Of a stretch of DNA of 64,000 bases, positions 5,469 through 20,720 are shown in pieces. Every line of letters starts with the position of its first letter. Positions within the stretch are counted from its first letter, which is position 1. Source of the stretch: an uncultured Nitrospiraceae bacterium (GTDB taxonomy: Bacteria > Nitrospirota > Thermodesulfovibrionia > Thermodesulfovibrionales > SM23-35). Where the stretch lies: NCBI GenBank assembly GCA_963727775.1, contig CAVSHB010000003.1:128001-192000 (forward strand). The letters run 5' to 3'. The position numbers and the translations under genes were made by a program. The notes under the pieces were generated by a model. The model saw nothing but the letters and a program-made list of their open reading frames with translations, made no database searches and was not told the origin of the DNA.

Positions 5469-5499
5469 CAAAAAGCCGAAGATTATTCAGCCATTTAAT

Positions 5500-6102
5500 T
5501 AAATTATATACCCCGCTGTCTCTGCGGCGGGGAAACCGTGAACCCCCTTTTGAAAAGGGGGTTTGGGGGATTATAATGCTGTTACAATGGAACTGGGAAA
5601 GAGGCCTCATGCGGTCTATAAGATTCGATACCATTTGGTGACTGCTGTAAAGTACCGTAAGGTTTTGTTGAATGAGGAAGTTGAGAAATGTATCAGAGAG
5701 ACAATGAGGGGAATTACTGAACGGTACAATATTGTAATCGATGAAATTGGATTTGATGAGGATCAAATACATATCTTCTGCGGTGCTCAACCGCAATATA
5801 GCCCGAGTCAGGTGCTGAACGTAATTAAGTCGATAACGGCGAAACGAGTATTCGAAGAATTTCCGAAGATGAAGAAAGTAGAATTGTGGGGTGGAGAATT
5901 CTGGAGTGACGGCAAGGACATAGGAACGGTCGGGGATGCAACAAATGAAGAAGTGATTAAGCGATACATAAGGAATCAGACTTTGGATAAGTCTGAAATA
6001 GAGCGGCGCACAGGTCAGCTAAAACTGTTCAAAATTTAAAGATGCCATCGCTGGTGAGAGTTTTCCGAGATACCCCGCCGTCTCTGCGGCGGGGAGGTTC
6101 AT
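5500..6102 (+). mobile_element. IS200/IS605-family insertion sequence (IS200 type, tnpA only, no tnpB)
   Basis: Near-identical subterminal hairpins CCCCGC(T/C)G-TCTCTG-CGGCGGGG at 5511-5532 and 6073-6094 flank a Y1 transposase; the right end finishes in TTCAT (6098-6102). The left boundary is inferred just after TAAT (5496-5499). Confidence 0.85.
5587..6039 (+). CDS. tnpA: IS200/IS605 Y1 (HUH) transposase TnpA, HUH motif degenerate (QIH)
   Basis: YHLVTAVKYRK, KSITAK, LWGGEFWSDG, YIRNQ; ATG at 5587 preferred over the TTG at 5563. Confidence 0.9.
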   Translation: MELGKRPHAVYKIRYHLVTAVKYRKVLLNEEVEKCIRETMRGITERYNIVIDEIGFDEDQIHIFCGAQPQYSPSQVLNVIKSITAKRVFEEFPKMKKVELWGGEFWSDGKDIGTVGDATNEEVIKRYIRNQTLDKSEIERRTGQLKLFKI

Positions 6103-6251
6103 TCATAAAATTTGCGGATGCCGACAGATACAGTATTTGCGCTCATTCTCGGCCCGATACGGATCGGGCCTCCGAGGTAAATTCTTTCGAAGAAAGAATT
6201 TAAACCCGCTTAAATACTGTATTTGTCGATTTTACGAATAGTGCGGATTAG
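6103..6251 (+). repeat. T-shaped palindromic element, copy 1 (MITE-like or structured RNA)
   Basis: Long stem CGACAGATACAGTATTT/AAATACTGTATTTGTCG enclosing two hairpins; highly similar to the reverse complement of 20566-20720. Confidence 0.85.
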
Positions 6252-6690
6252 GGGGTAGTGCAACGATAGAAAACCAGAAAATATTGATAGCTTTGACGAC
6301 GTCTAAAAAGCCTTCGAGACTGAGAGGTTTGATAATGTAACAGTTCGCGTGGAGATTATATGCGTTAAAAATATCCTGCTCGGCCCTTGAGGTTGACAGG
6401 ATTATTACGGGGATGCGCTTCAGCTGCGGGTCTTTTTTAATTTCTGCCAAGACCTCCAGACCATTCTTTTTAGGCAGATTAAGATCAAGAAATATGATAT
6501 CCGGACGTTCAGCGGCGGCATACTTTTCTTCATTCCGCAGGTATGCAATGGCTTCCACCCCGTCATTAACAACATTCAGGTAATTGGGGATATTGCTTTC
6601 TTCCAAAGATTCTTTTGTAAGGCGCACATCTCCGGGGTTGTCTTCCACCAATAAGATATTAACAATCTTGTCGGCTATTATTCCGTTCAT
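6232..6690 (-). CDS. Single-domain response regulator (Rcp1-like receiver)
   Basis: ILLVEDNPGD, DLNLPKKNG, STS, ANCYIIKP, FW..IV.LP. Confidence 0.92.
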   Translation of the reverse strand: MNGIIADKIVNILLVEDNPGDVRLTKESLEESNIPNYLNVVNDGVEAIAYLRNEEKYAAAERPDIIFLDLNLPKKNGLEVLAEIKKDPQLKRIPVIILSTSRAEQDIFNAYNLHANCYIIKPLSLEGFLDVVKAINIFWFSIVALPPNPHYS

Positions 6691-6808
6691 ATTTCCTCTC
6701 TATAGCCAATTATGCTAAAAGAAAATATCGAATATTGTCTATTGTGGCAAGCGTAACGGCGACTTAATATGTTGTTATAAGTAAAAAGCATATCTGTAAA
6801 AGTTAAAT

Positions 6809-6824
6809 AGCAAGAGAGATGCCA
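6809..6824 (-). promoter_or_regulatory. Sigma54 (-24/-12) promoter for the response regulator
   Basis: Minus strand TGGCAT-CTCTC-TTGCT, about 120 nt upstream of the ATG. Confidence 0.7.
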
Positions 6825-7101
6825 GATACAAGTTCTTGATTTTAATGGCTTAAAAGTAACCTATAGTTTTTGTTATGGGCAATTTGCACCTTGAGTGTGT
6901 CATATTGCCTTATTTAAGCATATTGTTGCACTCTCACAAAAAAAACGGCGCGCTGCTACGACTTTACCTCTGCTGAGATAGTGATATAATTAAACTCAAA
7001 GGATAATACAGCGCCATATCTCTATAGTTGGAAGGGGCGTACAAGTTTTATATTTTGAGGTTCAAGGCCTAACAAAAATACAAAGCAAAAGGAGAAGGTC
7101 C

Positions 7102-7935
7102 ATGAAAATGACAGCATATGTCTCTATATTGATCGCGGTTTTAATTCTTTGTTCTGCTCAGACGCCCGCCGCTTCTTCATCACTGCTTGTGCAAGAACCG
7201 TCTTTGCAAGATCAGGATACAAAAACTACTGTGGAAAAAGAAAACAAATCGGAACCGGCAAAGGGACCGCAACAAAAAACTGCCGATACCGGGACGGATG
7301 TTAATGCAGGACAGAAAGAAGAAGAGGGTCCGCGGGTCGCGGACCCCCTGTACCCGTGGAACAAGGCAATGTACCACTTCAATGACAAGTTCTATTTTTG
7401 GGTAATGAAGCCTGTTGCGCAGGGATATTCTTCAGTTGTTCCTGAAGATGTCAGACTTTCGGTCAGCAACTTTTTTCGAAACCTTACTACGCCGGTCCGC
7501 TTTGTGAGCAATCTTTTGCAGCTCAAAATAAAAAATGCGGGGAATGAACTCGTCCGTTTTGTTTACAACAGTACAGCCGGTGTCGGCGGTCTTGCCGATA
7601 CTGCAAAGACTGATCTGCATATTCGGCGTCATGATGAAGACCTTGGCCGGACATTCGGCGCCTACGGCATAGGACACGGATTTTACATCGTATGGCCTGT
7701 TCTCGGCCCCTCTTCCCTGCGTGATTCAGTGGGACTGGTCGGAGACACATTCCTGAACCCGGTGAGTTACGTACAACCTATTGAAGCAGCTATAGGGATT
7801 GCCGCATACGATATGGTTAACGAGACATCATTTCATATAGGGGATTACGAGGACCTCAAAAAATCAGCGGTTGATCCTTATATTTCTATCCGTGACGCTT
7901 ATATCCAGTATAGAAAAAACGAGTTGGAAGAATAA
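7102..7935 (+). CDS. mlaA: MlaA/VacJ family protein
   Basis: DPLYPWNKAMYHFND, NSTAGVGGL, EDLGRTFG.YG, PVLGPSSLRD, DPY.SIRDAY. Confidence 0.92.
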   Translation: MKMTAYVSILIAVLILCSAQTPAASSSLLVQEPSLQDQDTKTTVEKENKSEPAKGPQQKTADTGTDVNAGQKEEEGPRVADPLYPWNKAMYHFNDKFYFWVMKPVAQGYSSVVPEDVRLSVSNFFRNLTTPVRFVSNLLQLKIKNAGNELVRFVYNSTAGVGGLADTAKTDLHIRRHDEDLGRTFGAYGIGHGFYIVWPVLGPSSLRDSVGLVGDTFLNPVSYVQPIEAAIGIAAYDMVNETSFHIGDYEDLKKSAVDPYISIRDAYIQYRKNELEE

Positions 7936-7942
7936 TACATTA

Positions 7943-10900
7943 TCAAACCTCACACCATTCTTTTGCATTCTGAAACAGTCTAAGCCAGGGAGATGCTTTA
8001 AGGGTGTTCTTCCATTTCTCGGGCATATATGCCCACTGCCATTTAAGAAATGTCCTCTCAGGATGGGGCATCATCGCAAAATGTCTGCCGTCCGGAGAAC
8101 ACAAGGCTGTTATGCCTGAAGGAGAGCCGTTTGGATTAAACGGATACACCTCCGTGAACTTACTATTGTCATCAACAAATCGGATGGGCGCAAGATTTTT
8201 TTCAAGGACTTCCATCAAAATGTCTTTTTTCGGAAAATGGAGCCTCCCTTCGCCATGGGCGACCCATATGCCTAAGGTGGAACCTTCCATGCCCTTCAGC
8301 ATTATAGAAGGGCTCTTTACAATATGGACGGTCGAGAATCTCGATTCAAACCTGCCCGATCTGTTCTGGATGAACCTCGGCTGGATATTATCGGTTAGGC
8401 CCTTCCAGGGAATCCATCCGAGCAATGCCATCAGCTGACAGCCGTTGCATACGCCGAAGCTGAAGGTATCAGGCCTTTCATAGAATTTCAGGAATTGCTC
8501 GTATATTCGTTTGTTGAACCTGATTACACCTGCCCACCCTTTAGCTGAATCAAGGACATCCGCATAACTGAAGCCCCCCACAAAGGCAATCCCCCTGAAG
8601 CTATCGAGGTCTGTGTTTTTTTCAATAAGGTCTGTCATGGTAATATCCCAGACTTCAAAGCCGGCATGATAAAAGGCAGAGATCATTTCACGGTCTCCGT
8701 TGCTCCCTTCTTCCCGTAAGACTGCCACCCTTGGTTTCCTGTCTGTTTTGAGAAATGCCCGATGAGTAGTCTCAGGAGAAAATGAGACGGAATATTCGGG
8801 TCCTTTCCTGTCAAGACTCACGTTATTTTCCTCATCAACACAATCAGGATTTGCCTGAAGCCTGTCGAGGTGATAACTCGTTTTTTCCCAGATTGCCCTA
8901 AGGACTCTCATATCTTCTTCCAAAACGGATCGCCCATTTATGTTTATAGCGATTTCCTTTTCGACTGTTGTATTACCGATTACCTGATAAGGTATATCAT
9001 TTTTTTTGAGGTAATTCGTTATTCTTTTTTCGTTCTCCGGCAAGTACTCAATCACTAATCCGAGTTCTTCAGAAAATAAAAGTGAAAGTTCAAGGATGCC
9101 TCCCGTCCCCCCTTCCTTACCAAGGGGGGGCTGGGAGGGTAAAGTCGCATCTATGTTTATCTCTATACCACAATTGCCTCCGAAAGCCATCTCAAGAAGT
9201 GTAACGATTAATCCCCCATCGCTTCGGTCGTGGCCGGAAAGAATAATGTTCTTTGAGATAAATTTCTGTACACAGTTAAAAGTTTTTTTGAGAAGATTTG
9301 AATCTTCGATGTCCGGGGATTCATTCCCTATCTGACCGTAAACATGCGCTAAAGCAGTACCTCCCAGCCTGTATCTGCCGTTGCCGAGATCTATGTAGAT
9401 CAACCTGCTTTCACCTGGTCTCTTAATATCAGGAGAGATAACTTTTGTAATATCGGGGCATGTGACATATGCGGAAATGACAAGGCTTCCGGGGGCTTTT
9501 ACTATTTCTGTTTTACCCGACGGACCAACGACCTTAGCGGCCATGGAGAGACTGTCCTTCCCGCCGTCGATCGCAATGCCGAGCTCAATTAAAACATCTC
9601 TTAATGCTGTGGCAGCGTCATGAAGTCTTGCGCCTTCACCGGGAAGCTTTGCCGCCCACATCCAGTTGCCGGAGCATTTAATATCTTCAAGGGCGCTCAC
9701 CTTTGCCCACATGAGGTTCGTTATAGCCTCACCGACACTCATCCGGGCCATTGCCTGAGGGCTAATGAGACCCTTAATCGGTTGTTCGCCGACCGCGATT
9801 GCCGCTCCTGTCAATCCAAAATGACTCTGGCTTATGACTGCAACGTCCGACAACGTTAATTGCAAAGGACCGACACACTGCTGTTGGGCTATAAGCCCGG
9901 TAACAGACCTGTCGACTTTATTTGTAAGGAACCTTTTGGATCCGACTGAAACAAGGCGCAGTACTTTGTCGAGAGCCTCTCTGCTTGAGATATCCTCGGG
10001 CATCCTTAGAAGCTCAAGCTCAGGTTTTATTCTTTCTATTGTAAATGTCTTTTGCGGCATTTCGCCGAGGACTTTTGACAGATCGAGGTTCACGGGTGAA
10101 CTCCCATCCGTTTCATCATGAAGGACAATATAACCGGCTCCTGTTATCTCCCCGATGAAGGAACAGGGGACCTTTTCCCGCCGGCAGAGAGTGAGAAAAG
10201 CTTCTTTTTTCTCGGGCTTTAAAAGCAACGCATCCAGTTCCTGGTATTCAGCGCCCCATATCTCAAGCACTGAAAGGGTATCATCGCCGAGTTGAATACT
10301 CCTGATTTCTATCTTGGCGCCGGCGGGATAAATGATTTCTTTCACAACATTGCAGTTGCCGCCCGCGCCCTGGTCATGTATGCTGATGATAGGGTTCTTA
10401 TTCCCCATCTCAACACATGCCCTTATGACCCTGTTTACCTTCTGCTCCATTTCCGCATCACCGCGCTGTACTGCGCTGAAATCAAGCTCGGCTATGTTTT
10501 CTCCCTGTATCATGCTCGATGCTGATCCGCCGCCGATCCCGATCCTGTAAGCAGGGCCGCCGATCTTTACCACCAGCATCCCTTTCCGGGGTTCACCTTT
10601 TTCAATATGACCGCCGTTTATCTGTCCGATACCGCCCGTGAACATTATCGGTTTGATCCATTCTCTTCTCTCACCGTACGGCAACCTTAAACCGAAAGAT
10701 CTTGTAAAACCCTGTATCACCGGTTCGCCGAATTTATTCCCGTAATCGGATGCGCCATTGCTTGCCTCTATCTCTATCTGCAGCGGTGAGGCAAGGTTTG
10801 AGGGATATTCAAACGACAGGTCTTCCCAGGGCAGAACATAACCGGGGATTTGCAGATTACCTACACAATATGCGGCGGTACCGGCCACGACTAAGCTTCC

Positions 10901-11983
10901 CTTGCCGGTTGCATGGACATCCCGTATTCTTCCGCCGGTCCCTGTCTCTGCACCTGGAAACGGCGCAACACCGGTAGGGAAGTTGTGTGTTTCCGCCGTA
11001 AAGATAAGGTGATAATTGAGTTTTGAATTTCTAAAGCGTGAAGGTCTGCCGGATTGTTCCGGTACTATCGCCGATATTTTATAGCCCTTTATCGCGCTTG
11101 AGTTGTCCTTGAAGGCAAGGAGGCTGTTATTAAGATTGCTTTTAAGAGGCTGTTTAATCAAATCCATGAGTGTATAAGTCATCTCCATACCATCAATGAC
11201 CAATCTTCCCCTGAAAAACCAGTGGCGCGAGTGCTCGCTGTTTGATTGGCCGAGGTCAAAACACTCTACATTGGTAGGATTACGTCCTATATCATGTATG
11301 AAGAGTTTGTAATAGTAATCTATGTCCCAATCATCAAGGCCAAGCCCCATTTCAGTATTTATCTTCCTGAGCGCATCTTTGCCGTGTTCGATCAACGGCA
11401 CTATATAAACCGGCTCGGGTTTTATTCCTGTCTCAAAGCCGGTGAGCTCGGCAGGATAAAGACACTCCGTCATCCTGTCGTGAACGAGCTCGAGAAAGGG
11501 TCCCAGTATTCGAGGGTCCGAGGGTCCAAATCGATTATCTATTCCCTGACCCCCTGACTTATTGATGCCCTCATTGAATATCAGTTCATACCTTCGCGAC
11601 CTCTCTATCCTCGTAATCTTCGTGAGGCCGCAGGCATAACATACAGAAACTGCATTCGTCGACCATGCAGTGGTAAAGTTCATGCGTGGACCGACTTCGA
11701 CGACTATTCCGTTGGTCCCATCATTCGTAAGGGGGGACGTAGAGTGGGTATTGTTCAGGAAGCTTTTATCCGAAAAATTCTCCGGGTCGAATGTCTCTGC
11801 CAGGAGCCATCGGAGGAGCCCCAGTTCATCATCGGTGAGCGTTTCTTTGGCCTGAATATTGAAACAGTATTCTGTTTCAATATCGCTGATATTGGGAGAT
11901 ATCTTCTGCCGGGCTGCGGACAGCAGCTCGTTCTTCCCGGCTTGTGAAAGTGCCGGTTTTCGAAAAAGATGCAATAAGCTCAT
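7943..11983 (-). CDS. purL: Phosphoribosylformylglycinamidine synthase, large single-chain form
   Basis: NSEHSRH, AETHNFPT, HDQGAGG, GGKDSLSM, GVCNGCQ, MPHPER; 1346 aa. Confidence 0.98.
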   Translation of the reverse strand: MSLLHLFRKPALSQAGKNELLSAARQKISPNISDIETEYCFNIQAKETLTDDELGLLRWLLAETFDPENFSDKSFLNNTHSTSPLTNDGTNGIVVEVGPRMNFTTAWSTNAVSVCYACGLTKITRIERSRRYELIFNEGINKSGGQGIDNRFGPSDPRILGPFLELVHDRMTECLYPAELTGFETGIKPEPVYIVPLIEHGKDALRKINTEMGLGLDDWDIDYYYKLFIHDIGRNPTNVECFDLGQSNSEHSRHWFFRGRLVIDGMEMTYTLMDLIKQPLKSNLNNSLLAFKDNSSAIKGYKISAIVPEQSGRPSRFRNSKLNYHLIFTAETHNFPTGVAPFPGAETGTGGRIRDVHATGKGSLVVAGTAAYCVGNLQIPGYVLPWEDLSFEYPSNLASPLQIEIEASNGASDYGNKFGEPVIQGFTRSFGLRLPYGERREWIKPIMFTGGIGQINGGHIEKGEPRKGMLVVKIGGPAYRIGIGGGSASSMIQGENIAELDFSAVQRGDAEMEQKVNRVIRACVEMGNKNPIISIHDQGAGGNCNVVKEIIYPAGAKIEIRSIQLGDDTLSVLEIWGAEYQELDALLLKPEKKEAFLTLCRREKVPCSFIGEITGAGYIVLHDETDGSSPVNLDLSKVLGEMPQKTFTIERIKPELELLRMPEDISSREALDKVLRLVSVGSKRFLTNKVDRSVTGLIAQQQCVGPLQLTLSDVAVISQSHFGLTGAAIAVGEQPIKGLISPQAMARMSVGEAITNLMWAKVSALEDIKCSGNWMWAAKLPGEGARLHDAATALRDVLIELGIAIDGGKDSLSMAAKVVGPSGKTEIVKAPGSLVISAYVTCPDITKVISPDIKRPGESRLIYIDLGNGRYRLGGTALAHVYGQIGNESPDIEDSNLLKKTFNCVQKFISKNIILSGHDRSDGGLIVTLLEMAFGGNCGIEINIDATLPSQPPLGKEGGTGGILELSLLFSEELGLVIEYLPENEKRITNYLKKNDIPYQVIGNTTVEKEIAININGRSVLEEDMRVLRAIWEKTSYHLDRLQANPDCVDEENNVSLDRKGPEYSVSFSPETTHRAFLKTDRKPRVAVLREEGSNGDREMISAFYHAGFEVWDITMTDLIEKNTDLDSFRGIAFVGGFSYADVLDSAKGWAGVIRFNKRIYEQFLKFYERPDTFSFGVCNGCQLMALLGWIPWKGLTDNIQPRFIQNRSGRFESRFSTVHIVKSPSIMLKGMEGSTLGIWVAHGEGRLHFPKKDILMEVLEKNLAPIRFVDDNSKFTEVYPFNPNGSPSGITALCSPDGRHFAMMPHPERTFLKWQWAYMPEKWKNTLKASPWLRLFQNAKEWCEV
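9098..9142. repeat. GC-rich palindrome inserted in frame in purL (encodes LPSQPPLGKEGGTGG)
   Basis: cctccc-gt-cccccc-ttccttaccaa-gggggg-gct-gggagg hairpin. Confidence 0.7.
11497..11572. repeat. Octamer-unit repeat inserted in frame in purL
   Basis: agggtccc agtattcg agggtccg agggtcca ... ccctgacc ccctgact; same unit type as 3660-3739. Confidence 0.55.
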
Positions 11984-12022
11984 TTGAGTCTTATTTTAAC
12001 AGAAACGGAAGGGCAGGGTGGT

Positions 12023-13324
12023 TCATGAAGATGACCCGAATACTCTCTCGAAAATGTAATCTGTATTTTTCAGATAATACCCGAGGTCAAAAATAGTATC
12101 GATCTCTTTTGATGTCAGATATCTTTTTACTCCTTTGTCCTTTAATAATAATTTTTTGAACTGTGTCTCTGTCTTCCAGCTTTTCATCGCAGTCCTCTGG
12201 ACTATATCGTACGCGGCTTCACGTGTGAGCCCCTTATCGATAAGGCCGAGCATAACGCGCTGAGAATTATAGAGTCCGTAACTTTTGGTCATATTGGCTT
12301 TCATCCTTTTCGGATAAACATGAAGCTTGTCAAGAATTCCTTTGAGCCTTCCAAGCATATAATCCGTCAGTATGGAGCTGTCGGGAATTATTACCCGCTC
12401 AACGGAAGAATGCGATATGTCCCTTTCATGCCATAGCGCAACATCTTCAAGAGCTGCCATGGCGTTCGATCGTACAAGCCGCGCCAGACCGGAAAGGTTC
12501 TCACAGCCGATAGGATTTCTTTTATGCGGCATAGCGGATGATCCCTTCTGTCCCGCCATGAACGGCTCTTCGGCCTCAAGGACTTCGGACCTCTGCAGAT
12601 GCCTTATTTCAACAGCTATCTTTTCTACGGAGGCTGCAATCAGCGCAAGGCTTGTAAGATATTCGGCATGTCTGTCTCTCTGGACTATCTGCGTCGCAAC
12701 CGGTTCAGGCTTAAGTCCGAGTTTTTTGCAGACCTTCTCCTCGATAGCGGGCGGGATATTTGAGAAGGTGCCCACAGCGCCTGAAAGCTTGCCTATGCTT
12801 ATTATTTCTTTGGCCCTTTTCATCCGCACAAGATTTCTTTTCATATCCTCATACCAAAGGGCAAACTTGAGCCCGAAGGTCATCGGCTCTGCATGAACGC
12901 CGTGACTTCTGCCTATCATCGGGGTATCTTTATATTTGAATGCCTGTTTTCTTATGACATCCATCAACGCTTTAATATCTCTAATGATAATATCAGAGGC
13001 CTCGCGCATAAGGAGGGCCAGCGCCGTATCCAGGATATCTGATGAGGTCAGCCCCTTATGGATAAACCTCGACTCGGGACCGAGGTTCTGCGCAACTGAA
13101 GTAAGGAATGCGATTACATCATGTTTTACAACCTTTTCAATTTCATCGATCCTTTTAATATCGAAGCTGGCTTTTTCCTTAATGAGTCTTAATGAGTCCT
13201 GCGGGATCTCGCCGAGCTCTGTCCACGCCTCGCATGCTGCAATCTCGACGTCAAGCCATTTCTGATATTTGTTTTCAAGGTCCCATAACCTTCCCATTTC
13301 AGGGTATGTATAACGTTGTATCAT
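12023..13324 (-). CDS. purB: Adenylosuccinate lyase
   Basis: HDVIAF, GRSHGVHAEP, GSSAMPHKRNP. Confidence 0.98.
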   Translation of the reverse strand: MIQRYTYPEMGRLWDLENKYQKWLDVEIAACEAWTELGEIPQDSLRLIKEKASFDIKRIDEIEKVVKHDVIAFLTSVAQNLGPESRFIHKGLTSSDILDTALALLMREASDIIIRDIKALMDVIRKQAFKYKDTPMIGRSHGVHAEPMTFGLKFALWYEDMKRNLVRMKRAKEIISIGKLSGAVGTFSNIPPAIEEKVCKKLGLKPEPVATQIVQRDRHAEYLTSLALIAASVEKIAVEIRHLQRSEVLEAEEPFMAGQKGSSAMPHKRNPIGCENLSGLARLVRSNAMAALEDVALWHERDISHSSVERVIIPDSSILTDYMLGRLKGILDKLHVYPKRMKANMTKSYGLYNSQRVMLGLIDKGLTREAAYDIVQRTAMKSWKTETQFKKLLLKDKGVKRYLTSKEIDTIFDLGYYLKNTDYIFERVFGSSS

Positions 13325-13583
13325 ATTTCCCCCTAAAAAATTCTAATATCTAAAATGCCGGAAGAGCAAATCTTTTGCGATTAATTCCCCCTTTATTAAG
13401 GGGAAAGGTTATCCATTTTAACACCTTATACCCTTGCAAAAAAAGATATTTTTGTGTTAACCTTTCCTTCCTAAAGGAAAATTCCGTATTTTCTATGCGG
13501 ACATGCGCTTTTTCAATTAATTTGTACAGAAAAACCCCTAAATCAGAAAAAGGGGTTTTGAAAGGACAGGAGGAAAAAAGAAA

Positions 13584-14345
13584 ATGGTAACGGCAATGAA
13601 AGAACTGCTTGAGGCAGGTGTACACTTTGGTCATCAGGTAAAAAGATGGCATCCGAAGATGAAGAAGTATATCTTTGGAGAGAGAAACGGGATCTATATA
13701 ATCGATCTTCAGAAGACGGTTAAAGGTCTTGAGGTGGCCTATGATTTTGTAAAGAATCTCTCCATAGCGGGAACTCCGATATTGTTTGTCGGCACTAAGA
13801 AACAATCACAGGACGCAATCAAAGAAGAGGCCGAAAGATCGGGTGCGTTCTATGTTAACCAGCGCTGGCTCGGAGGAATGCTGACGAACTTTTCAACGAT
13901 AAAGAAAAGTATAGAAAAACTGAAAAAGATAGAGACGATGAAAGAGGACGGTACTTTCGATCTGCTCCCCAAAAAAGAGGTGGCAGCTCTCGAGAAGGAA
14001 AGAGGGAAACTTGAAAAAAACCTCTCCGGCATCAAGAATATGACCGGTTTTCCGGGCGCCCTGTTTATTGTGGACCCGAAAAAGGAGAGGATCGCTGTGG
14101 CAGAGGCAAAGAAACTCTCGGTCCCGATTGTTGCGATCGTCGACACAAACTGTGACCCGGATGAAATCGATTATGTAATCCCCGGCAACGACGATGCCAT
14201 AAGGGCAATTAAACTTATTACCTCAAAAATCGCCGAGGCCATAATGGAAGGGAAAGAGACGTTATCAAAGACTATGGCGGAAAAGACCGAGAAGACCGAG
14301 GTCGAAGAAAAGATACAGCAGGAGGAGGCAGAGGCATCAAAATGA
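13584..14345 (+). CDS. rpsB: 30S ribosomal protein S2
   Basis: [30 protein letters not shown]. Confidence 0.99.
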
Positions 14346-14947
14346 CGACAATTTCAGCAGAATCAGTCAAGAATCTCCGGGAAAAAACGGGCGCCGGCAT
14401 GATGGAGTGCAAAAAAGCATTGACTGAAAGCAGCGGAGATTTTGAAAAGGCAGTCGACCTATTGAGACAAAAGGGGCTTGCCAGCGCACATAAGAAATCC
14501 GGAAGGACGGCGTCCGAAGGCCTCATTGATTCATATATTCATATGGGCAAGATCGGAACGATGGTTGAAGTGAACTGCGAAACGGACTTCGTAGCAAGAA
14601 CCGATGATTTCAAAGAACTCCTTAAGGATATTTCAATGCATATTGCGGCTGCAAATCCTACTTATCTTTCAAGGGAGGACGTGCCCCAGAATGTAATTGA
14701 ACGTGAAAAGGAGATATACAAGGCACAGGTTTCAGGCAAACCTCCGCAGGTAGTTGAAAAGATCATAGAGGGAAAGCTCGAAAAGTTTTATTCGGATGTC
14801 TGTCTGCTCGACCAGGTATTCATTAAGGACCCGGACCAGAAAAAGAAGATAAAAGGCCTTGTCACCGAGAAGATTGCAAAACTGGGCAAGAATATCGTCA
14901 TAAGAAGGTTTGCGAGGTTTCAGCTCGGAGAAGCCGCAACAGGATAA
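14342..14947 (+). CDS. tsf: Elongation factor Ts (short form)
   Basis: [26 protein letters not shown]. Confidence 0.98.
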
Positions 14948-16217
<1,270 letters not shown>

Positions 16218-16370
16218 ATGACGAACAGCAATTTTATCGTGAAGGTAACAGATGCAAAACTTGCAGACCTTCAAAAGGCGTTGCAGGCTGCGGATATTAA
16301 GGTAAGGAGTATTATTCAGGTCTTTAAAGAAGAGGTAAAATCACAAGAAGAGGAAAAGGAAACAAAGTAA
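16218..16370 (+). CDS. Small hypothetical protein, 50 aa
   Basis: MTNSNFIVKVTDAKLADLQKALQAADIKVRSIIQVFKEEVKSQEEEKETK; begins right after the frr stop and its TAA overlaps the dksA ATG. Confidence 0.65.
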   Translation: MTNSNFIVKVTDAKLADLQKALQAADIKVRSIIQVFKEEVKSQEEEKETK

Positions 16371-17056
16371 TGGCAAACAAGAAAACGAAAAAGAAAATAG
16401 GCAAGTCCGTTAAGACAGGCGTAAAAGCCACTGTGAAAAAGGGCGTAAAAGCCAGACCGAAAGCGTCTGAAAAATCCAAAAAAGCTTCCCCAAAAACTTC
16501 TTCTAAAAAAGCTTCTCTTAAGACTAAAACAATAACGTCCAAAACTAAGAAAGCAATAATAAAAAAACCGGTAACAAAAAAGACTATCGCTAAAAAAGTC
16601 TCTTTAAAAACTCCTGCTAAAACAAAGATACCTCATCCTGTGGTGAAGAAACCTTCTGAAGAAAAATCCATGGACGAAAAAATGATTGAACTCAGAAGGG
16701 CCTTAGTCAGGAAACGCGAAGAAATCGTAAAAGAGGTAAAGAGCGAAATATCAAAATATATAAAGGGTGAAACAAGGCAGCTTGTGGATACAGCCCTTGA
16801 TGACGGGGATTGGTCGGTCGTCGATCTATCGGAGGACATAAGCCTCAGACACCTGAGTACCCACAGGGAAAACCTCCTCAAGATGGATGAGGCCTTAAGG
16901 AAACTTGAAGAGGGAACTTATAGTATTTGCGAGGACTGCGGAGAACCGATAGGCACGGAGAGGCTCAAGATACTTCCGTTTGCGATTTATTGTATAGATT
17001 GCCAGGAAAGAAGAGAACAGCTCGAGGCAATGGAGAGGAAAGAAGGAATAGGCTAA
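16370..17056 (+). CDS. dksA: TraR/DksA C4-type zinc-finger protein with Lys-rich N-terminal extension
   Basis: DxxD tip (LDDGDWS), ALRKLEEGTYSICEDCGEPIGTERLKILPFAIYCIDC. Confidence 0.85.
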   Translation: MANKKTKKKIGKSVKTGVKATVKKGVKARPKASEKSKKASPKTSSKKASLKTKTITSKTKKAIIKKPVTKKTIAKKVSLKTPAKTKIPHPVVKKPSEEKSMDEKMIELRRALVRKREEIVKEVKSEISKYIKGETRQLVDTALDDGDWSVVDLSEDISLRHLSTHRENLLKMDEALRKLEEGTYSICEDCGEPIGTERLKILPFAIYCIDCQERREQLEAMERKEGIG

Positions 17057-18033
17057 CTGCTTATTTCCCCGTTAATCTTCGGAGCGCACTTTTTGTATAC
17101 TTCATCCAGTATTTCTTTCCCACCTTTAGAGAGAATCTCATCCGCCAGTTGAACGCCGAGGGGTTCTGCGTTCTCCGGCATTCCTTCAATATGACCTTTT
17201 ATAATTTTATCTCCTGAAATACTTCCAACTAATCCGTCCATACTGACCTTACCGTGAATCAGTCTCGCGTGCGCTGCGATAGGCACCTGGCAGCCGCCTT
17301 CCAGGCGCAGCAAGAAAGCCCTTTCAGCTTTGACGCATATTGATGTTTCTGAATGGTCCAGATGGGAAATAAGGCCATGAATAAATTCATCATCAATTCT
17401 GCATTCGATCCCTATAGCGCCCTGGCCAATGGCGGGAAGGCTTCTTTCAAAGGGCAGGATCTCAGTTATTCTATTCTGCAGCCCGAGTCTTTTCACACCG
17501 GCAGCAGCCAGGATTATGGCTTCGAACTGACCCTCATCCAGTTTTCTCAGTCTCGTATCGAGGTTGCCCCGTAACTGTTTAATCTTTAAATCAGGCCGGA
17601 TGCTGAGCAACTGACATGACCGTCTGAGACTGCTCGTCCCTATTGTCGCGCCTTTGGGCAGGCTTTTAAAGTTTTGGACCTTGAACTTTGAACTTTGAAC
17701 TTGAGAAATGAACGCGTCTCTCGGGTCTTCTCTTTCGCAGATCACCGCGAGTTGGAGCTCTTCGGGAAATTCCGTCGGCACGTCCTTCATGCTGTGGACA
17801 GCGATATCCGCCTCACGCCTCAACAGGGCCTCTTCTATCTCCTTAACAAAAAGGCCTTTGCCTCCAATTTGCGCAAGAGGCACATCGAGGATCTTATCGC
17901 CCGTGGTTTTAATCTTGTTTAATTCAATCTCCAGATCAGGGTAACGGCTTTTCAACTCGGCTTTGATCCATTCGGCCTGCCATAGCGCGAGTTTGCTTCC
18001 CCTTGTGCCGATGGATATTTTACGTCTCTTCAT
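17053..18033 (-). CDS. hemC: Hydroxymethylbilane synthase
   Basis: IGTRGSKLALWQ, AVHSMKD, GTSSLRR, LEGGCQVP; start taken at MKRRK. Confidence 0.97.
   Translation of the reverse strand: MKRRKISIGTRGSKLALWQAEWIKAELKSRYPDLEIELNKIKTTGDKILDVPLAQIGGKGLFVKEIEEALLRREADIAVHSMKDVPTEFPEELQLAVICEREDPRDAFISQVQSSKFKVQNFKSLPKGATIGTSSLRRSCQLLSIRPDLKIKQLRGNLDTRLRKLDEGQFEAIILAAAGVKRLGLQNRITEILPFERSLPAIGQGAIGIECRIDDEFIHGLISHLDHSETSICVKAERAFLLRLEGGCQVPIAAHARLIHGKVSMDGLVGSISGDKIIKGHIEGMPENAEPLGVQLADEILSKGGKEILDEVYKKCAPKINGEISS
17673..17704. repeat. Heptamer tandem repeat (TTTGAAC) in frame in hemC
   Basis: tttggac cttgaac tttgaac tttgaac ttga, encoding QVQSSKFKVQ. Confidence 0.7.
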
Positions 18034-19297
18034 TATTTTCTCCGTCAAGGCCATAGAGTCTTTTTATCGTCGCGACCAGAATGTCTTTGTTCTCAGAATC
18101 TTCTTTGAGGGCCGCGGTCGGCGGGTGTATGAGTTTGTTGACCAGAGCAGTAGCCATATATTCGATGGCCTCTTTCTCCTTTTGTCCTATACCCTCGATC
18201 TTGTGCAGGAGTTTGTTAAGCTCTTCTTTTTTGATCTCCTCTGCCTTCTCCCTTAATGCCAGAATGGTCGGGACAGAGTCGAGGGAAGCCCGCCATTTGA
18301 CAAAGTTCTCCAGCTCTTCTTCGATTATTTTTTCAGCTTTTTCCGCTTCTTTCCGCCTCTCAAACACATTTGTATCGACCACTCCCTGAAGATCGTCGAC
18401 ATTATACAGATAAACATTCTCAAGGTCGTTTATCTCCGGATCGATGTTTCTCGGTACCGATATATCGATAATGAATACCTGCCTGTGCTTTCTCTCCTTC
18501 ATCACTTTCTGCATCTGGACTTTTGAGAGGACATAATTCGGCGCCCCGGTTGAACAGATGACAATGTCGGTACGCGCCATCTCCCGGATAAAGTCATCAA
18601 ACGGGACGGGTCTTCCGTTAAATTCCTTTGCCAGATCACAGGCGCGATTGTATGTCCTGTTCGATACAAGGACTTCCTTCACCCCGCTGCTGATCAGGTG
18701 CTTGGCGGCAAGTTCGGCCATCTCACCCGCCCCCAAAAGCATGAATACCCTTTTTGAGAGATCGGTAAATATCTTCTTTGCGAGTTCAACAGCCGCAAAG
18801 CTTATGGAGACGGCATTCTCCGCAATCCTTGTTTCAGTCCTCACCCTCTTTGCTACCGATATCGCTTTTTTCAGCAGCTTGTTCAGGAGGACGCCGGTGG
18901 TCTTTTTCGATAGGGCCAATTCGAATGCAGCCTTCAACTGACCGAGGATCTGGGGTTCACCGACTACCATTGAGTCAAGGCTCGAGGCGACCCTGAAGAT
19001 ATGTTTCACTGCCTGCATATCGTCATAAATATAGAGGGCGTTATCCAGCGAGCTTTTGTTTATGCTGTGAAACTCCGAAAGGAATGTCCTGACGGCTTCA
19101 GACGCCTTTTCCGCGTCCCTGACGTTCGCGTAAAGCTCCACGCGGTTGCACGTGGAAAGTATGATGGCCTCGTCAACCTCTGGAAGCTCTCTGAACCGTG
19201 TGAGGCCCTCTTCGAGTTTAGGCCCGTTGAATGCCAGTTTCTCCCTGACATCTACATCGGCAATCTTGTGATTGAGTCCTACGACAAAAGCTTTCAT
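18020..19297 (-). CDS. hemA: Glutamyl-tRNA reductase
   Basis: VVGLNHK, LSTCNRVE, GEPQILGQ, GAGEMA; true start MKAFVV at 19297 overlaps the ccsA stop. Confidence 0.97.
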   Translation of the reverse strand: MKAFVVGLNHKIADVDVREKLAFNGPKLEEGLTRFRELPEVDEAIILSTCNRVELYANVRDAEKASEAVRTFLSEFHSINKSSLDNALYIYDDMQAVKHIFRVASSLDSMVVGEPQILGQLKAAFELALSKKTTGVLLNKLLKKAISVAKRVRTETRIAENAVSISFAAVELAKKIFTDLSKRVFMLLGAGEMAELAAKHLISSGVKEVLVSNRTYNRACDLAKEFNGRPVPFDDFIREMARTDIVICSTGAPNYVLSKVQMQKVMKERKHRQVFIIDISVPRNIDPEINDLENVYLYNVDDLQGVVDTNVFERRKEAEKAEKIIEEELENFVKWRASLDSVPTILALREKAEEIKKEELNKLLHKIEGIGQKEKEAIEYMATALVNKLIHPPTAALKEDSENKDILVATIKRLYGLDGENNEET

Positions 19298-20109
19298 AGG
19301 AAAACGTGAAGTCCTTTTTGAAGTATCTTGATCCCGAAAAAGGCGATGAGGATCGACAGAAAGCCGACTATGGATAATAATGCGGCCCTCTTGCCTCTCC
19401 ATCCGGCAACAAGCCTTGCATGAAGAATAATCGCGTAAATAAACCATGTCACCAATGACCACGTCTCTCTCGGGTCCCAGTTCCAGTAACTCCCCCAGGC
19501 GCTCTCCGCCCATAAGGCGCCTGTTATTATTGCAAGCGTAAGCAATGGAAACCCGAAGGTTATGAGCCTGTAATTTATTTCATCCAGAGTCTGCAGGCTC
19601 GGCAGCCTTTCAAACAGCCCGCCGAGATGTTTTGATTTCACATAGTGTTCCTGGACAAGGTACATGACGCCTATGCCGAAGGCCAGCGCAAACGCGGCAT
19701 TCCCGAGAAAGGCAAGGACGGTATGAATGCCGAGCCAGTAACTCTGGAGCACCGGACTTAAAGGTCTTATCTCTCTCGACAGCATTGATGATAAGAGCAT
19801 CAGGATAAAGACAAGCGGCATAATAAATGAGGAAAGGAGGTTGACCTTGTACCTGAATTGCAATATGAAAAAGATCAAGACTATACACCACGAGAAAAAC
19901 GACGTTGCTTCATGGGGGTTTGTTATGGGGATATGTCCCGCAGTCACATAGCGAAAAATGATATTTATGGTATGGACGGCAAAACCGAGGGCAGCCAGCG
20001 AAATCATGATCTTTGAAGTTATCTTCGATTCTTTAAAGAGTTCGGTAACGCTGACGACCGTCGCGGCAAAATAAAAGGTCAGGGCAAGTTCAAAAAGTAT
20101 CACTCCCAT
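19294..20109 (-). CDS. ccsA: Cytochrome c biogenesis protein CcsA/CcsB (HemX-like)
   Basis: GALWAESAWGSYWNWDPRETWS (WWD motif), multiple TM helices. Confidence 0.9.
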   Translation of the reverse strand: MGVILFELALTFYFAATVVSVTELFKESKITSKIMISLAALGFAVHTINIIFRYVTAGHIPITNPHEATSFFSWCIVLIFFILQFRYKVNLLSSFIMPLVFILMLLSSMLSREIRPLSPVLQSYWLGIHTVLAFLGNAAFALAFGIGVMYLVQEHYVKSKHLGGLFERLPSLQTLDEINYRLITFGFPLLTLAIITGALWAESAWGSYWNWDPRETWSLVTWFIYAIILHARLVAGWRGKRAALLSIVGFLSILIAFFGIKILQKGLHVFL

Positions 20110-20279
20110 CAGAAACAGCCAAGCTCACAGCTTATAATCTTAACGTTAAGCTCATCGGCAGTCCTGCCGATTTCTTTGTAGGAAACAGTGAGGTCTTGTG
20201 CGATCTTCCTTGCAACAGCGCAAGGCAACCTGTTGTTAACGGCCTTTTTCCGGATTTCTTCTTTTACTTTTTCTTTCAT
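20109..20279 (-). CDS. Small Cys-motif protein, 56 aa (C-terminal CELGCF)
   Basis: MKEKVKEEIRKKAVNNRLPCAVARKIAQDLTVSYKEIGRTADELNVKIISCELGCF; its TGA overlaps the ccsA ATG. Confidence 0.8.
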   Translation of the reverse strand: MKEKVKEEIRKKAVNNRLPCAVARKIAQDLTVSYKEIGRTADELNVKIISCELGCF

Positions 20280-20300
20280 TCTGCCTTTGGTTATTTTTGA

Positions 20301-20464
20301 TTATTCATGAAGTATATCTTAATAATGGCGGACACGGTATTTTCGCTCATTCTCTGGCTGTCGCCCTCCGAGGCAAATTCTGTTTCGATAAATCTTCACA
20401 GAATTTAAAACCGCGAAAATACCGTGTCCGCCATTATTGATTATCATCTTTATGAATAAAGTGG
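20301..20464 (+). repeat. T-shaped palindromic element, copy 2 (diverged)
   Basis: Stem AATAATGGCGGACACGGTATTTTCGC/GCGAAAATACCGTGTCCGCCATTATT; core GCTCATTCTC..CTCCGAGG..AAATTCT..AGAATTTAAAACCGC; ends TTATTCATGA/TTATGAATAA. Confidence 0.8.
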
Positions 20465-20501
20465 AATAAAGCGCTCAACCGCAGCGCCGTTCTCTATAAA
20501 A

Positions 20502-20530
20502 ATATTACAACATCGGCCTATAAAACTCAA
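20502..20530 (-). promoter_or_regulatory. Putative sigma70 promoter of the small ORF-ccsA-hemA-hemC operon
   Basis: Minus strand TTGAGT-17 nt-TAATAT. Confidence 0.45.
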
Positions 20531-20565
20531 TTGAACGAATATGCATAACGTTTCATTTCCAGATA

Positions 20566-20720
20566 TATTCATAAGATTGCCGGCAGATACAGTATTTAAG
20601 CGGCTTTAAATTCTTTCAAAGAAAGAAGTTACCTCGGAGGCCAGATTTGTACCGGGCCGAGAATGAGCGCAAATACTGTATCTGTCGGCACACGCAAATT
20701 TTATGAATAAAGTGGGTTAG
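20566..20720 (-). repeat. T-shaped palindromic element, copy 3 (core inverted relative to copies 1 and 2)
   Basis: Reverse complement aligns with 6101-6235 over about 130 nt with scattered substitutions. Confidence 0.85.

Follow-up and report, generated by a model that had tools for sequence, protein, structure and literature searches.

The DNA analysed here is a stretch of 64,000 nucleotides (the window) from contig CAVSHB010000003.1 of an uncultured Nitrospiraceae bacterium, whose genome of 3.43 Mb is called G000 below. An earlier sequence-only reading of the window had described a family of palindromic elements with copies at 6103-6251, 20301-20464 and 20566-20720, and all three are present at these positions. 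We find that the elements have two layers: an outer miniature inverted-repeat transposable element (MITE), bounded by terminal inverted repeats (TIRs) shared with an IS1380 transposon, and an inner module that folds into a three-way junction and also occurs apart from these TIRs in other phyla. The strand on which the sequence-only reading wrote the copies is referred to as the note strand, and its reverse complement, which is purine-rich, as the folding strand; L-numbers denote loci, and G027, G234 and G250 other carrier genomes. The features of the three copies are as follows.

5487..5498, plus strand: left remnant of copy 1, a degenerate 4-bp duplication and the first 8 nt of the left TIR, severed by IS200 after TTAA
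5499..6101, plus strand: IS200/IS605-family element with TnpA only (open reading frame, ORF, 5563-6039), inside the TIR of copy 1; Pfam Y1_Tnp E 1.4e-32, NF033573 above cut-off
6102..6247, plus strand: copy 1, a subfamily A MITE, with the remaining left TIR, spacer, inner module and right TIR (6231-6247)
6120..6228, minus strand (folding strand): inner module of copy 1, stem arms 6120-6138 and 6212-6228
6141-6151, 6170-6177 and 6204-6209, minus strand: core segments of the copy 1 inner module
6152-6169 and 6178-6202, minus strand: variable arms of the copy 1 inner module
6232..6690, minus strand: response-regulator gene, its stop codon and last ~6 codons inside the right TIR and duplication of copy 1
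6248..6251, plus strand: right target-site duplication TTAG of copy 1
20295..20465, plus strand: copy 2, second stem subfamily, decayed TIRs at ~20295-20310 and ~20450-20465
20320..20439, minus strand (folding strand): inner module of copy 2, core 20345-20355, 20366-20373 and 20409-20414
20566..20716, minus strand: copy 3, a subfamily A MITE with its left TIR intact (20701-20716) and its right TIR eroded
20579..20689, plus strand (folding strand): inner module of copy 3, core 20600-20605, 20632-20639 and 20658-20668
20717..20720, plus strand: YTAR target-site copy TTAG beside the intact TIR of copy 3

The sequence-only reading had written the arm pairs and the three mirrored substitutions of the stem correctly, except for one mismatch in the AGAATTTAA-bearing arm of copy 3. 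Folding of the three copies gave z values of -6.5 to -10.7 on both strands, whether as RNA or as DNA, and none of 200 shuffles was equally stable. The words TATTCAT and ATGAATA, which had been taken for the ends of the element, make up only the inner part of a TIR of 16 bp, which extends ~8 bp further outward to the true ends and is followed by a 4-bp duplication; the left end of copy 1 reads CATTCAT because the IS200 element (5499-6101) splits its left TIR. This IS200 was ruled out as the mover of copy 1: it interrupts the TIR after TTAA and is lacking in a ~95% relative, in which a contig joins 5500 directly to element sequence, so that it is a passenger. The same relative retains copy 2, while at the site of copy 3 it carries 52 other letters, that is, the copy is absent and the site is not a clean empty one. 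The IS200 has 6 close copies in G000, with target TTAA/TTGA, and two of the six (5499-6101 and C1:672113) sit at the same TTAA in a MITE left TIR; at locus L032 another IS200-type remnant lies inside the arm loop of a module.

The outer layer and its IS1380 ends

Iterated nhmmer searching (E<=1e-3) turned the supposed three-copy family into one of 75 copies in G000, all but one of them intergenic according to the gene calls made in this analysis. The unit measures ~155 bp from TIR to TIR and holds no gene, and many copies are bounded by the 16-bp imperfect TIR, about CCCACWTWATTCATAA, both repeats being kept at 12 or more of 16 positions in 37 of the 72 parsed G000 copies. Identical 4-mers flank 12 of these 37 (permutation p 5e-5), with 8 direct non-palindromic repeats among them against 1 that is inverted only; the target sites are YTAR, with a 4-bp duplication. 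In G027, which has undergone a younger burst of 62 copies (its congener has 0), identical flanking 4-mers were found in 14 of 20 copies, and IS1380 TIRs surround the module in 21 of 22 copies there and in 36 of 55 in G000. A comparison of filled and empty sites, as the sequence-only reading had proposed, yielded one clean pair: the metagenome locus L233 reads TTAG, a 155-bp TIR-to-TIR unit and TTAG, whereas its empty counterpart on contig C4 of G000 has a single ATAG (one substitution in the 4-mer) between flanks that are 95% identical. Owing to the shared TIRs, the target duplications and this pair, we regard the TIR-bounded unit as a MITE, and the non-autonomous mobile element suspected earlier is borne out in this gene-less form.

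A transposase with the same termini was also found. Outside the modules, this TIR also delimits four full elements of 1.66 kb and a partial one in G000, and the 462-aa ORF of the full elements is an IS1380 transposase (NF033539, 410 bits, cut-off 180); the IS1380 of a relative has one end identical to the MITE left-TIR consensus. Judged by these shared ends, the IS1380 transposase of G000 probably moves the MITE, a DDE enzyme in place of the HUH enzyme that had been envisaged for the unit. DDE transposition of a MITE is very probably what the outer layer represents. Module-less MITEs with a TIR at both ends were not found in G000. Two decayed copies there consist of a TIR with a collapsed stem lacking the core (C4:4090) and of a TIR with half a module (C1:1312699).

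In its passages on bacterial MITEs, PMC3733652 lists ERIC, NEMIS/Correia, YPAl and RUP among them, and gives features that the present unit shares: a length of 70-300 bp, TIRs of 15-30 bp, no ORF, target duplication, an autonomous partner whose ends are the same, strong secondary structure and a position next to genes. In contrast to such MITEs, here the centre rather than the ends is conserved, and the present module also occurs without these TIRs in other families and phyla and flips and swaps its arms in place. We found no report of an IS1380-derived MITE in the literature searched. IS1380 transposable modules such as ISPme1 and ISEcp1 are described, in the parts of PMC9330008 that concern them, as capturing and moving adjacent foreign DNA; unlike these, the present unit has two TIRs without a transposase gene around a non-coding, structured cargo. 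The outer MITE is ordinary in kind; it is the inner module that is uncatalogued in Rfam.

G000 contains 18 further PF13701 matches (~95-100 bits), which make up a second, more numerous DDE family without the MITE TIR. At L156 a truncated IS1380 (C3:394644-396360) overlaps the start of a gene resembling RAYT, the transposase of repetitive extragenic palindromes (REPs), which scores 78.3 bits (cut-off 80) and is bounded by its own short inverted repeats.

Architecture, strand and range of the inner module

The inner module is a three-way junction of ~105 nt, composed of a ~22-bp closing stem, two exchangeable arms and an invariant core, in the order stem, GAGCGGNTT, arm, CCTCGGAG, arm, CGAGAATGAGCGA, stem on the folding strand. 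Not all of the junction that the sequence-only reading called invariant is so genome-wide: near-invariance is limited to GCTCATTCTCG, CTCCGAGG and AnCCGC, and AGAATTTAA is part of a variable arm. Further copies were collected by scanning GTDB genomes and metagenomes with the core pattern, which gave at least 123 stretches each among the matches listed; 12 of 171 parsed copies were left out for a weak stem, and a few pattern matches are due to chance or incomplete. The stem has a median length of 22, with 18-26 in 243 of 288 copies. In 97 de-duplicated copies from outside G000 it is Watson-Crick paired at 86%, against 41% with shuffled partners, and every stem position shows three or four pair types. 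The further copies likewise bear out the covariation suspected earlier: in a 19-sequence alignment, counted for helix 1 only, 13 of 15 stem pairs are changed on both sides, which none of 500 shuffles reached; this test speaks for the stems, the invariant junction being outside its reach.

The pairing is strand-specific. Stem mismatches are mostly A-C on the note strand, which is a G-T wobble on the folding strand, and wobbles on the folding versus the note strand number 70 versus 13 in G000, 123 versus 34 in de-duplicated copies, 111 versus 12 in metagenome copies and 40 versus 15 in 29 copies from other phyla. Most copies have a tandem G-A opposition at the top of the stem on the folding strand (78/97 and 67/97). 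Among 172 distinct short arms, 77 could be resolved to loops of 3-4 nt; G..A loops account for 25 of the 77 on the folding strand and for none on the note strand, and 15 of 32 triloops are G-N-A. Loops of the G-N-A kind are of the DNA type, although our literature search gave no source for this. The folding strand is the more stable one in 177 of 190 copies. Taken together, we consider it very probable that selection maintains the folding of the module on one strand. Rfam 15 gave no match at gathering score in the window; the only hits were sub-threshold ones to long-hairpin models.

Within the taxonomic family of the host the core pattern was found in 30 of 36 genomes (36 of 61 having been searched; reversed-pattern control 0). 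Beyond the order, 1 of 150 genomes of the phylum had it. Full closed-stem modules occur in records titled Nitrospirota, Desulfobacterota, Planctomycetota, Latescibacterota, Gemmatimonadota, Omnitrophota, Saccharibacteria and Competibacteraceae, the phylum range being taken from the names in record titles. The module is multicopy in eight phyla, with an identical core and unrelated stems, and ten genomes picked for having a match hold 4 to 101 exact core matches each, counts that are likely low because exact patterns miss some copies. IS1380 TIRs are absent from all 17 copies of three other Nitrospirota families (f7, f12 and f23) and from all 29 copies of other phyla, from which it follows that the module can exist apart from this MITE; in some lineages it is surrounded by other repeated flanks. 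No match to the module was found in viral contigs, plasmids or phages. Nor was it found in the literature searched, where the listed matches to core words were unrelated by title; the supplementary repeat lists of PMC3733652 and PMC11893778 could include relatives. One core is kept over eight phyla of mostly uncultured bacteria.

In the 0.8-Mb Saccharibacteria (candidate phyla radiation) genome G250, two modules flank groES (L396), one upstream and one between groES and groEL, and both have the folding strand antisense. A second small non-coding family in G000, with 3 copies (C1:1533099, C3:283027 and C2:495692), ends in an IS200-like hairpin and holds a short hairpin word nearly identical to the minimal module arm and the adjoining core.

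At resident sites the two layers age differently. Rare variants in 31 subfamily A copies, a count from which a filter left out five flipped copies and some variants including copy 3, fall on 39 of 713 positions in the inner TIR and spacers and 8 of 175 in the arm loop, against 9 of 744 in the core and 25 of 1798 in the stems (p 5e-6, 5e-8 and 0.008). After insertion, the TIRs decay while the core and the pairing are kept. Identical arms recur on different stem subfamilies, and at orthologous sites we observed an arm replaced at 98% flank identity, hairpins gained, and the core inverted between the stem arms in four pairs; by eye, five G000 copies are flipped relative to their own MITE ends. 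Orthologous operon junctions have retained copies down to a flank identity of ~77%. In one TIR-less genus the empty sites are stop-codon/ribosome-binding-site (RBS) junctions of 5-23 nt, and the same junctions in other species are occupied by the module, in one orientation or the other, by a collapsed stem or by hairpin repeats of unrelated kinds. Repeats of 4 bp indicating duplication at the stem ends were found in 0 of 288 copies. The possibility that the core inserts into pre-existing stem-only hairpins was unsupported, such hairpins numbering 0 in G000 and only 2 convincing cases elsewhere (L350 and L448), which are best read as deletions across a CGCTC repeat. As to related structures, several unrelated types of hairpin repeat per junction occur across species at loci L423, L438, L446 and L447 of genus g32, like shared insertion hotspots, and the arm loops of L040, L043, L074, L210 and L257 contain nested palindromes of 15-45 bp gained in place between close relatives.

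The module is also oriented with respect to transcription. Where the neighbouring genes run in the same direction, the folding strand lies antisense to the mRNA in 36 of 41 G000 copies, in 20 of 27 of the GTDB set, in 16 of 19 of the metagenome set and in 13 of 17 copies of three further families, and orientation follows transcription rather than a weak replication-skew proxy. Promoter-like sites directed into either strand remain at background (e.g. 7/55 and 8/55 versus 124/1301). We read the bias as a mild, age-dependent cost of having the more stable strand in mRNA, and take it as an argument for a fold that acts in DNA. The structured non-coding RNA that the sequence-only reading had offered as an option is accordingly less favoured, the folding strand being mostly antisense to mRNA in this order, without a promoter excess into the module.

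Proposed mode of action and rival explanations

Our best reading is that the module is a single-stranded DNA (ssDNA) substrate, of the kind represented by REPs and by the targets of Ssn nucleases, captured by transposon ends. Of the earlier proposal of an ssDNA fold serving an HUH enzyme, the ssDNA part is retained for the inner module, on the other strand, and no HUH partner was found. The course of events begins with the insertion of the ~155-bp TIR-to-TIR unit at YTAR with a 4-bp duplication, presumably by the IS1380 transposase. Its module folds on the purine-rich strand only, with the ~22-bp stem, tandem G-A top, invariant junction and replaceable arms seen in the copies; the TIRs then decay as the core and pairing stay, and at orthologous sites cores invert and arms swap or gain hairpins. 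We propose that the folding strand becomes transiently single-stranded and that an Ssn- or RAYT-like enzyme may bind the junction and nick the stem, upon which repair by template switching or from other copies could account for the inverted cores, the exchanged arms and the spread of TIR-less modules into stop-codon/RBS junctions. Over time, an orientation that keeps the more stable strand out of the operon mRNA may be favoured. That a dedicated enzyme acts on the module as ssDNA, its nicks and their repair causing flips, arm exchange and TIR-less spread, is in our judgement evenly balanced between being right and wrong. More tentatively, the module might be the substrate of a third kind of ssDNA mobility system beside REP/RAYT and SRM/Ssn; such a system, which we again put forward with reserve, might rely on its own enzyme for cutting (or, less likely, on a module that cuts itself), be spread over at least eight phyla and have been captured several times by insertion-sequence ends. 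Given its defined strand and stem length, the module is a candidate substrate with which to look for another ssDNA nuclease or a natural catalytic nucleic acid.

The two known systems provide the closest comparison. In the relevant passages of PMC11893778 (Chenal et al. 2025), NTS/SRM hairpins are cut as ssDNA by Ssn GIY-YIG nucleases, and orphan CGTC REPs, which are similar repeats, have since been linked to a novel class of ssDNA nucleases that act site-specifically. As described there, the SRM shares with the module that it is a dispersed, intergenic, orientation-specific palindrome in which both sequence and structure matter, and the note-strand word CGCTCATTCTCG of the module resembles the NTS start CGTCATTCCCG, although it lies on the less well folding strand. 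In contrast to the SRM, a hairpin of 20-50 nt in the same passages, the module has ~105 nt and three arms; 0 of 190 and 0 of 75 module copies match the SRM consensus, and no ssn gene is flanked by the module, none having been found in G000. With REPs and REPINs, mobilised by RAYT (the HUH enzyme TnpA-REP), the module shares many intergenic copies near gene ends, lineage-specific bursts, a strand-specific imperfect palindrome and inverted doublets (here copies 2 and 3), as far as these are covered in passages of PMC6006769 and PMC3733652. A GTAG/GTGG or CGTC tag at the foot of the stem, a feature of REPs, was present in only 4, 4, 2 and 0 of 288, and no REPtron, a RAYT gene flanked by the module, was found in G000, the only genome searched for RAYT. 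On this comparison the module would work in the manner of REP/RAYT or SRM/Ssn repeats, but it shows neither the tags, nor the consensus match, nor the flanked enzyme gene that would place it among them.

Several results weigh against our reading. ORFs near 133 and then 405 loci were clustered by blastp, and flanking ORFs were scanned with Pfam (51/75, 80/103 and 83/181 listed ORFs, 214 scanned in all). No neighbour family recurs near the ~400 loci, and the 214 flanking ORFs, 69 of them without a Pfam match, include no transposase, integrase, reverse transcriptase or small GIY-YIG; the scans gave host genes and single housekeeping nucleases (TatD, Smr and two PIN), and the ORFs between paired copies are host genes as well. 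The only GIY-YIG of G000 is UvrC-like, and a small GIY-YIG is absent from 2 of 5 other carrier genomes. Among the IS1380 evidence, duplications are identical in only 2 of the 4 full copies, the other two being unequal, and no close IS1380 was found in G027, a fragmented assembly of 190 contigs. The antisense bias is absent in G027 (5/14; 5 versus 9) and in other phyla (9/19; 9 versus 10), where gene strands come from longest-ORF calls that may err, and orientation relative to the skew proxy is weak, 21-22 versus 12-13 non-tandem copies, where a lagging-strand mechanism predicts a clear link. The G-T wobble and the G-A motifs are as compatible with RNA as with DNA, and the G..A tetraloops comprise 7 GNRA versus 3 GNYA. 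Finally, covariation is not proof of selection, because template switching alone can keep a palindrome paired.

The purine-rich strand could alternatively be a structured RNA, either an antisense non-coding RNA or a self-cleaving ribozyme, partly spread by MITEs and purged when sense in operons; its invariant purine-rich junction, freely varying stems, G-U-type wobble on the folding strand and exclusion from mRNA (36/41 in G000, 20/27, 16/19) would all suit such a molecule. We nevertheless hold this to be unlikely, for there is no promoter excess into the folding strand, the short stop/RBS junctions that hold TIR-less copies leave little space for a promoter, the folding strand does occur in mRNA, as at the pta-ackA junction (L388), Rfam gives no match, and 15 of 32 triloops are of the DNA-type G-N-A kind. 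More doubtful is an RNA role on the note strand, in which the module would serve host mRNA as an ERIC- or Correia-like processing or stabilising hairpin that tunes operon expression. Its persistence at orthologous operon junctions to ~77% flank identity and the usual sense position of the note strand in this order speak for it, as do effects of MITEs on mRNA stability mentioned in parts of PMC3733652; but the signals from wobble, loops and G-A oppositions all point to the other strand, and related genomes carry the module in either direction at one and the same junction, which makes it a quite improbable account. A structured repeat at an operon junction need not act as RNA, a point that bears on the discovery of RNA motifs.

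Another option is a functionless cargo, tidied by template switching between its stem arms and by gene conversion among copies, and moved only inside MITEs of various insertion-sequence families. Self-correction and inversion are established properties of long palindromes, the stem subfamilies share a shuffled set of arms, and other lineages surround the module with other repeated flanks. Against this, the unpaired core is identical in eight phyla whose stems are unrelated, the central arm loop accumulates changes as the TIRs do and the core next to it does not, the wobble bias is confined to one strand, and the IS1380 TIR is found in 0/17 and 0/29 copies and a 4-bp repeat at the stem ends in 0/288; we consider it improbable that the module lacks a function altogether. 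The absence of a dedicated gene near ~400 loci would be explained if the junction were a site for a housekeeping DNA protein such as gyrase, polymerase I or a branch-specific helicase, without a dedicated nuclease, and REPs do bind IHF, Pol I and gyrase according to passages of PMC6006769. The patchy bursts (62 copies against 0 within one genus, and presence in 1 of 150 genomes outside the order) resemble horizontal spread instead, and this is the explanation to which we attach the least probability.

The remaining observations concern candidate partners of the ssDNA substrate. The two RAYT-like genes of G000 were rejected, being unflanked by the module, and no small GIY-YIG gene flanked by the module was found in G000; 1 of 5 inspected small GIY-YIG genes has a module nearby, on one side only. 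At L413 (G234, C4) a small GIY-YIG gene follows two tRNA genes and is flanked by tRNA-end-like repeats, with a module ~60 bp beyond, and these repeats carry the same mini-hairpin as many module arms. Elsewhere in G000 (C4:67456-68712), palindromic repeats of a CACAGAG type, a cluster that may be of the GxxExxY type, are grouped around a short ORF and interrupted by an IS200 copy.

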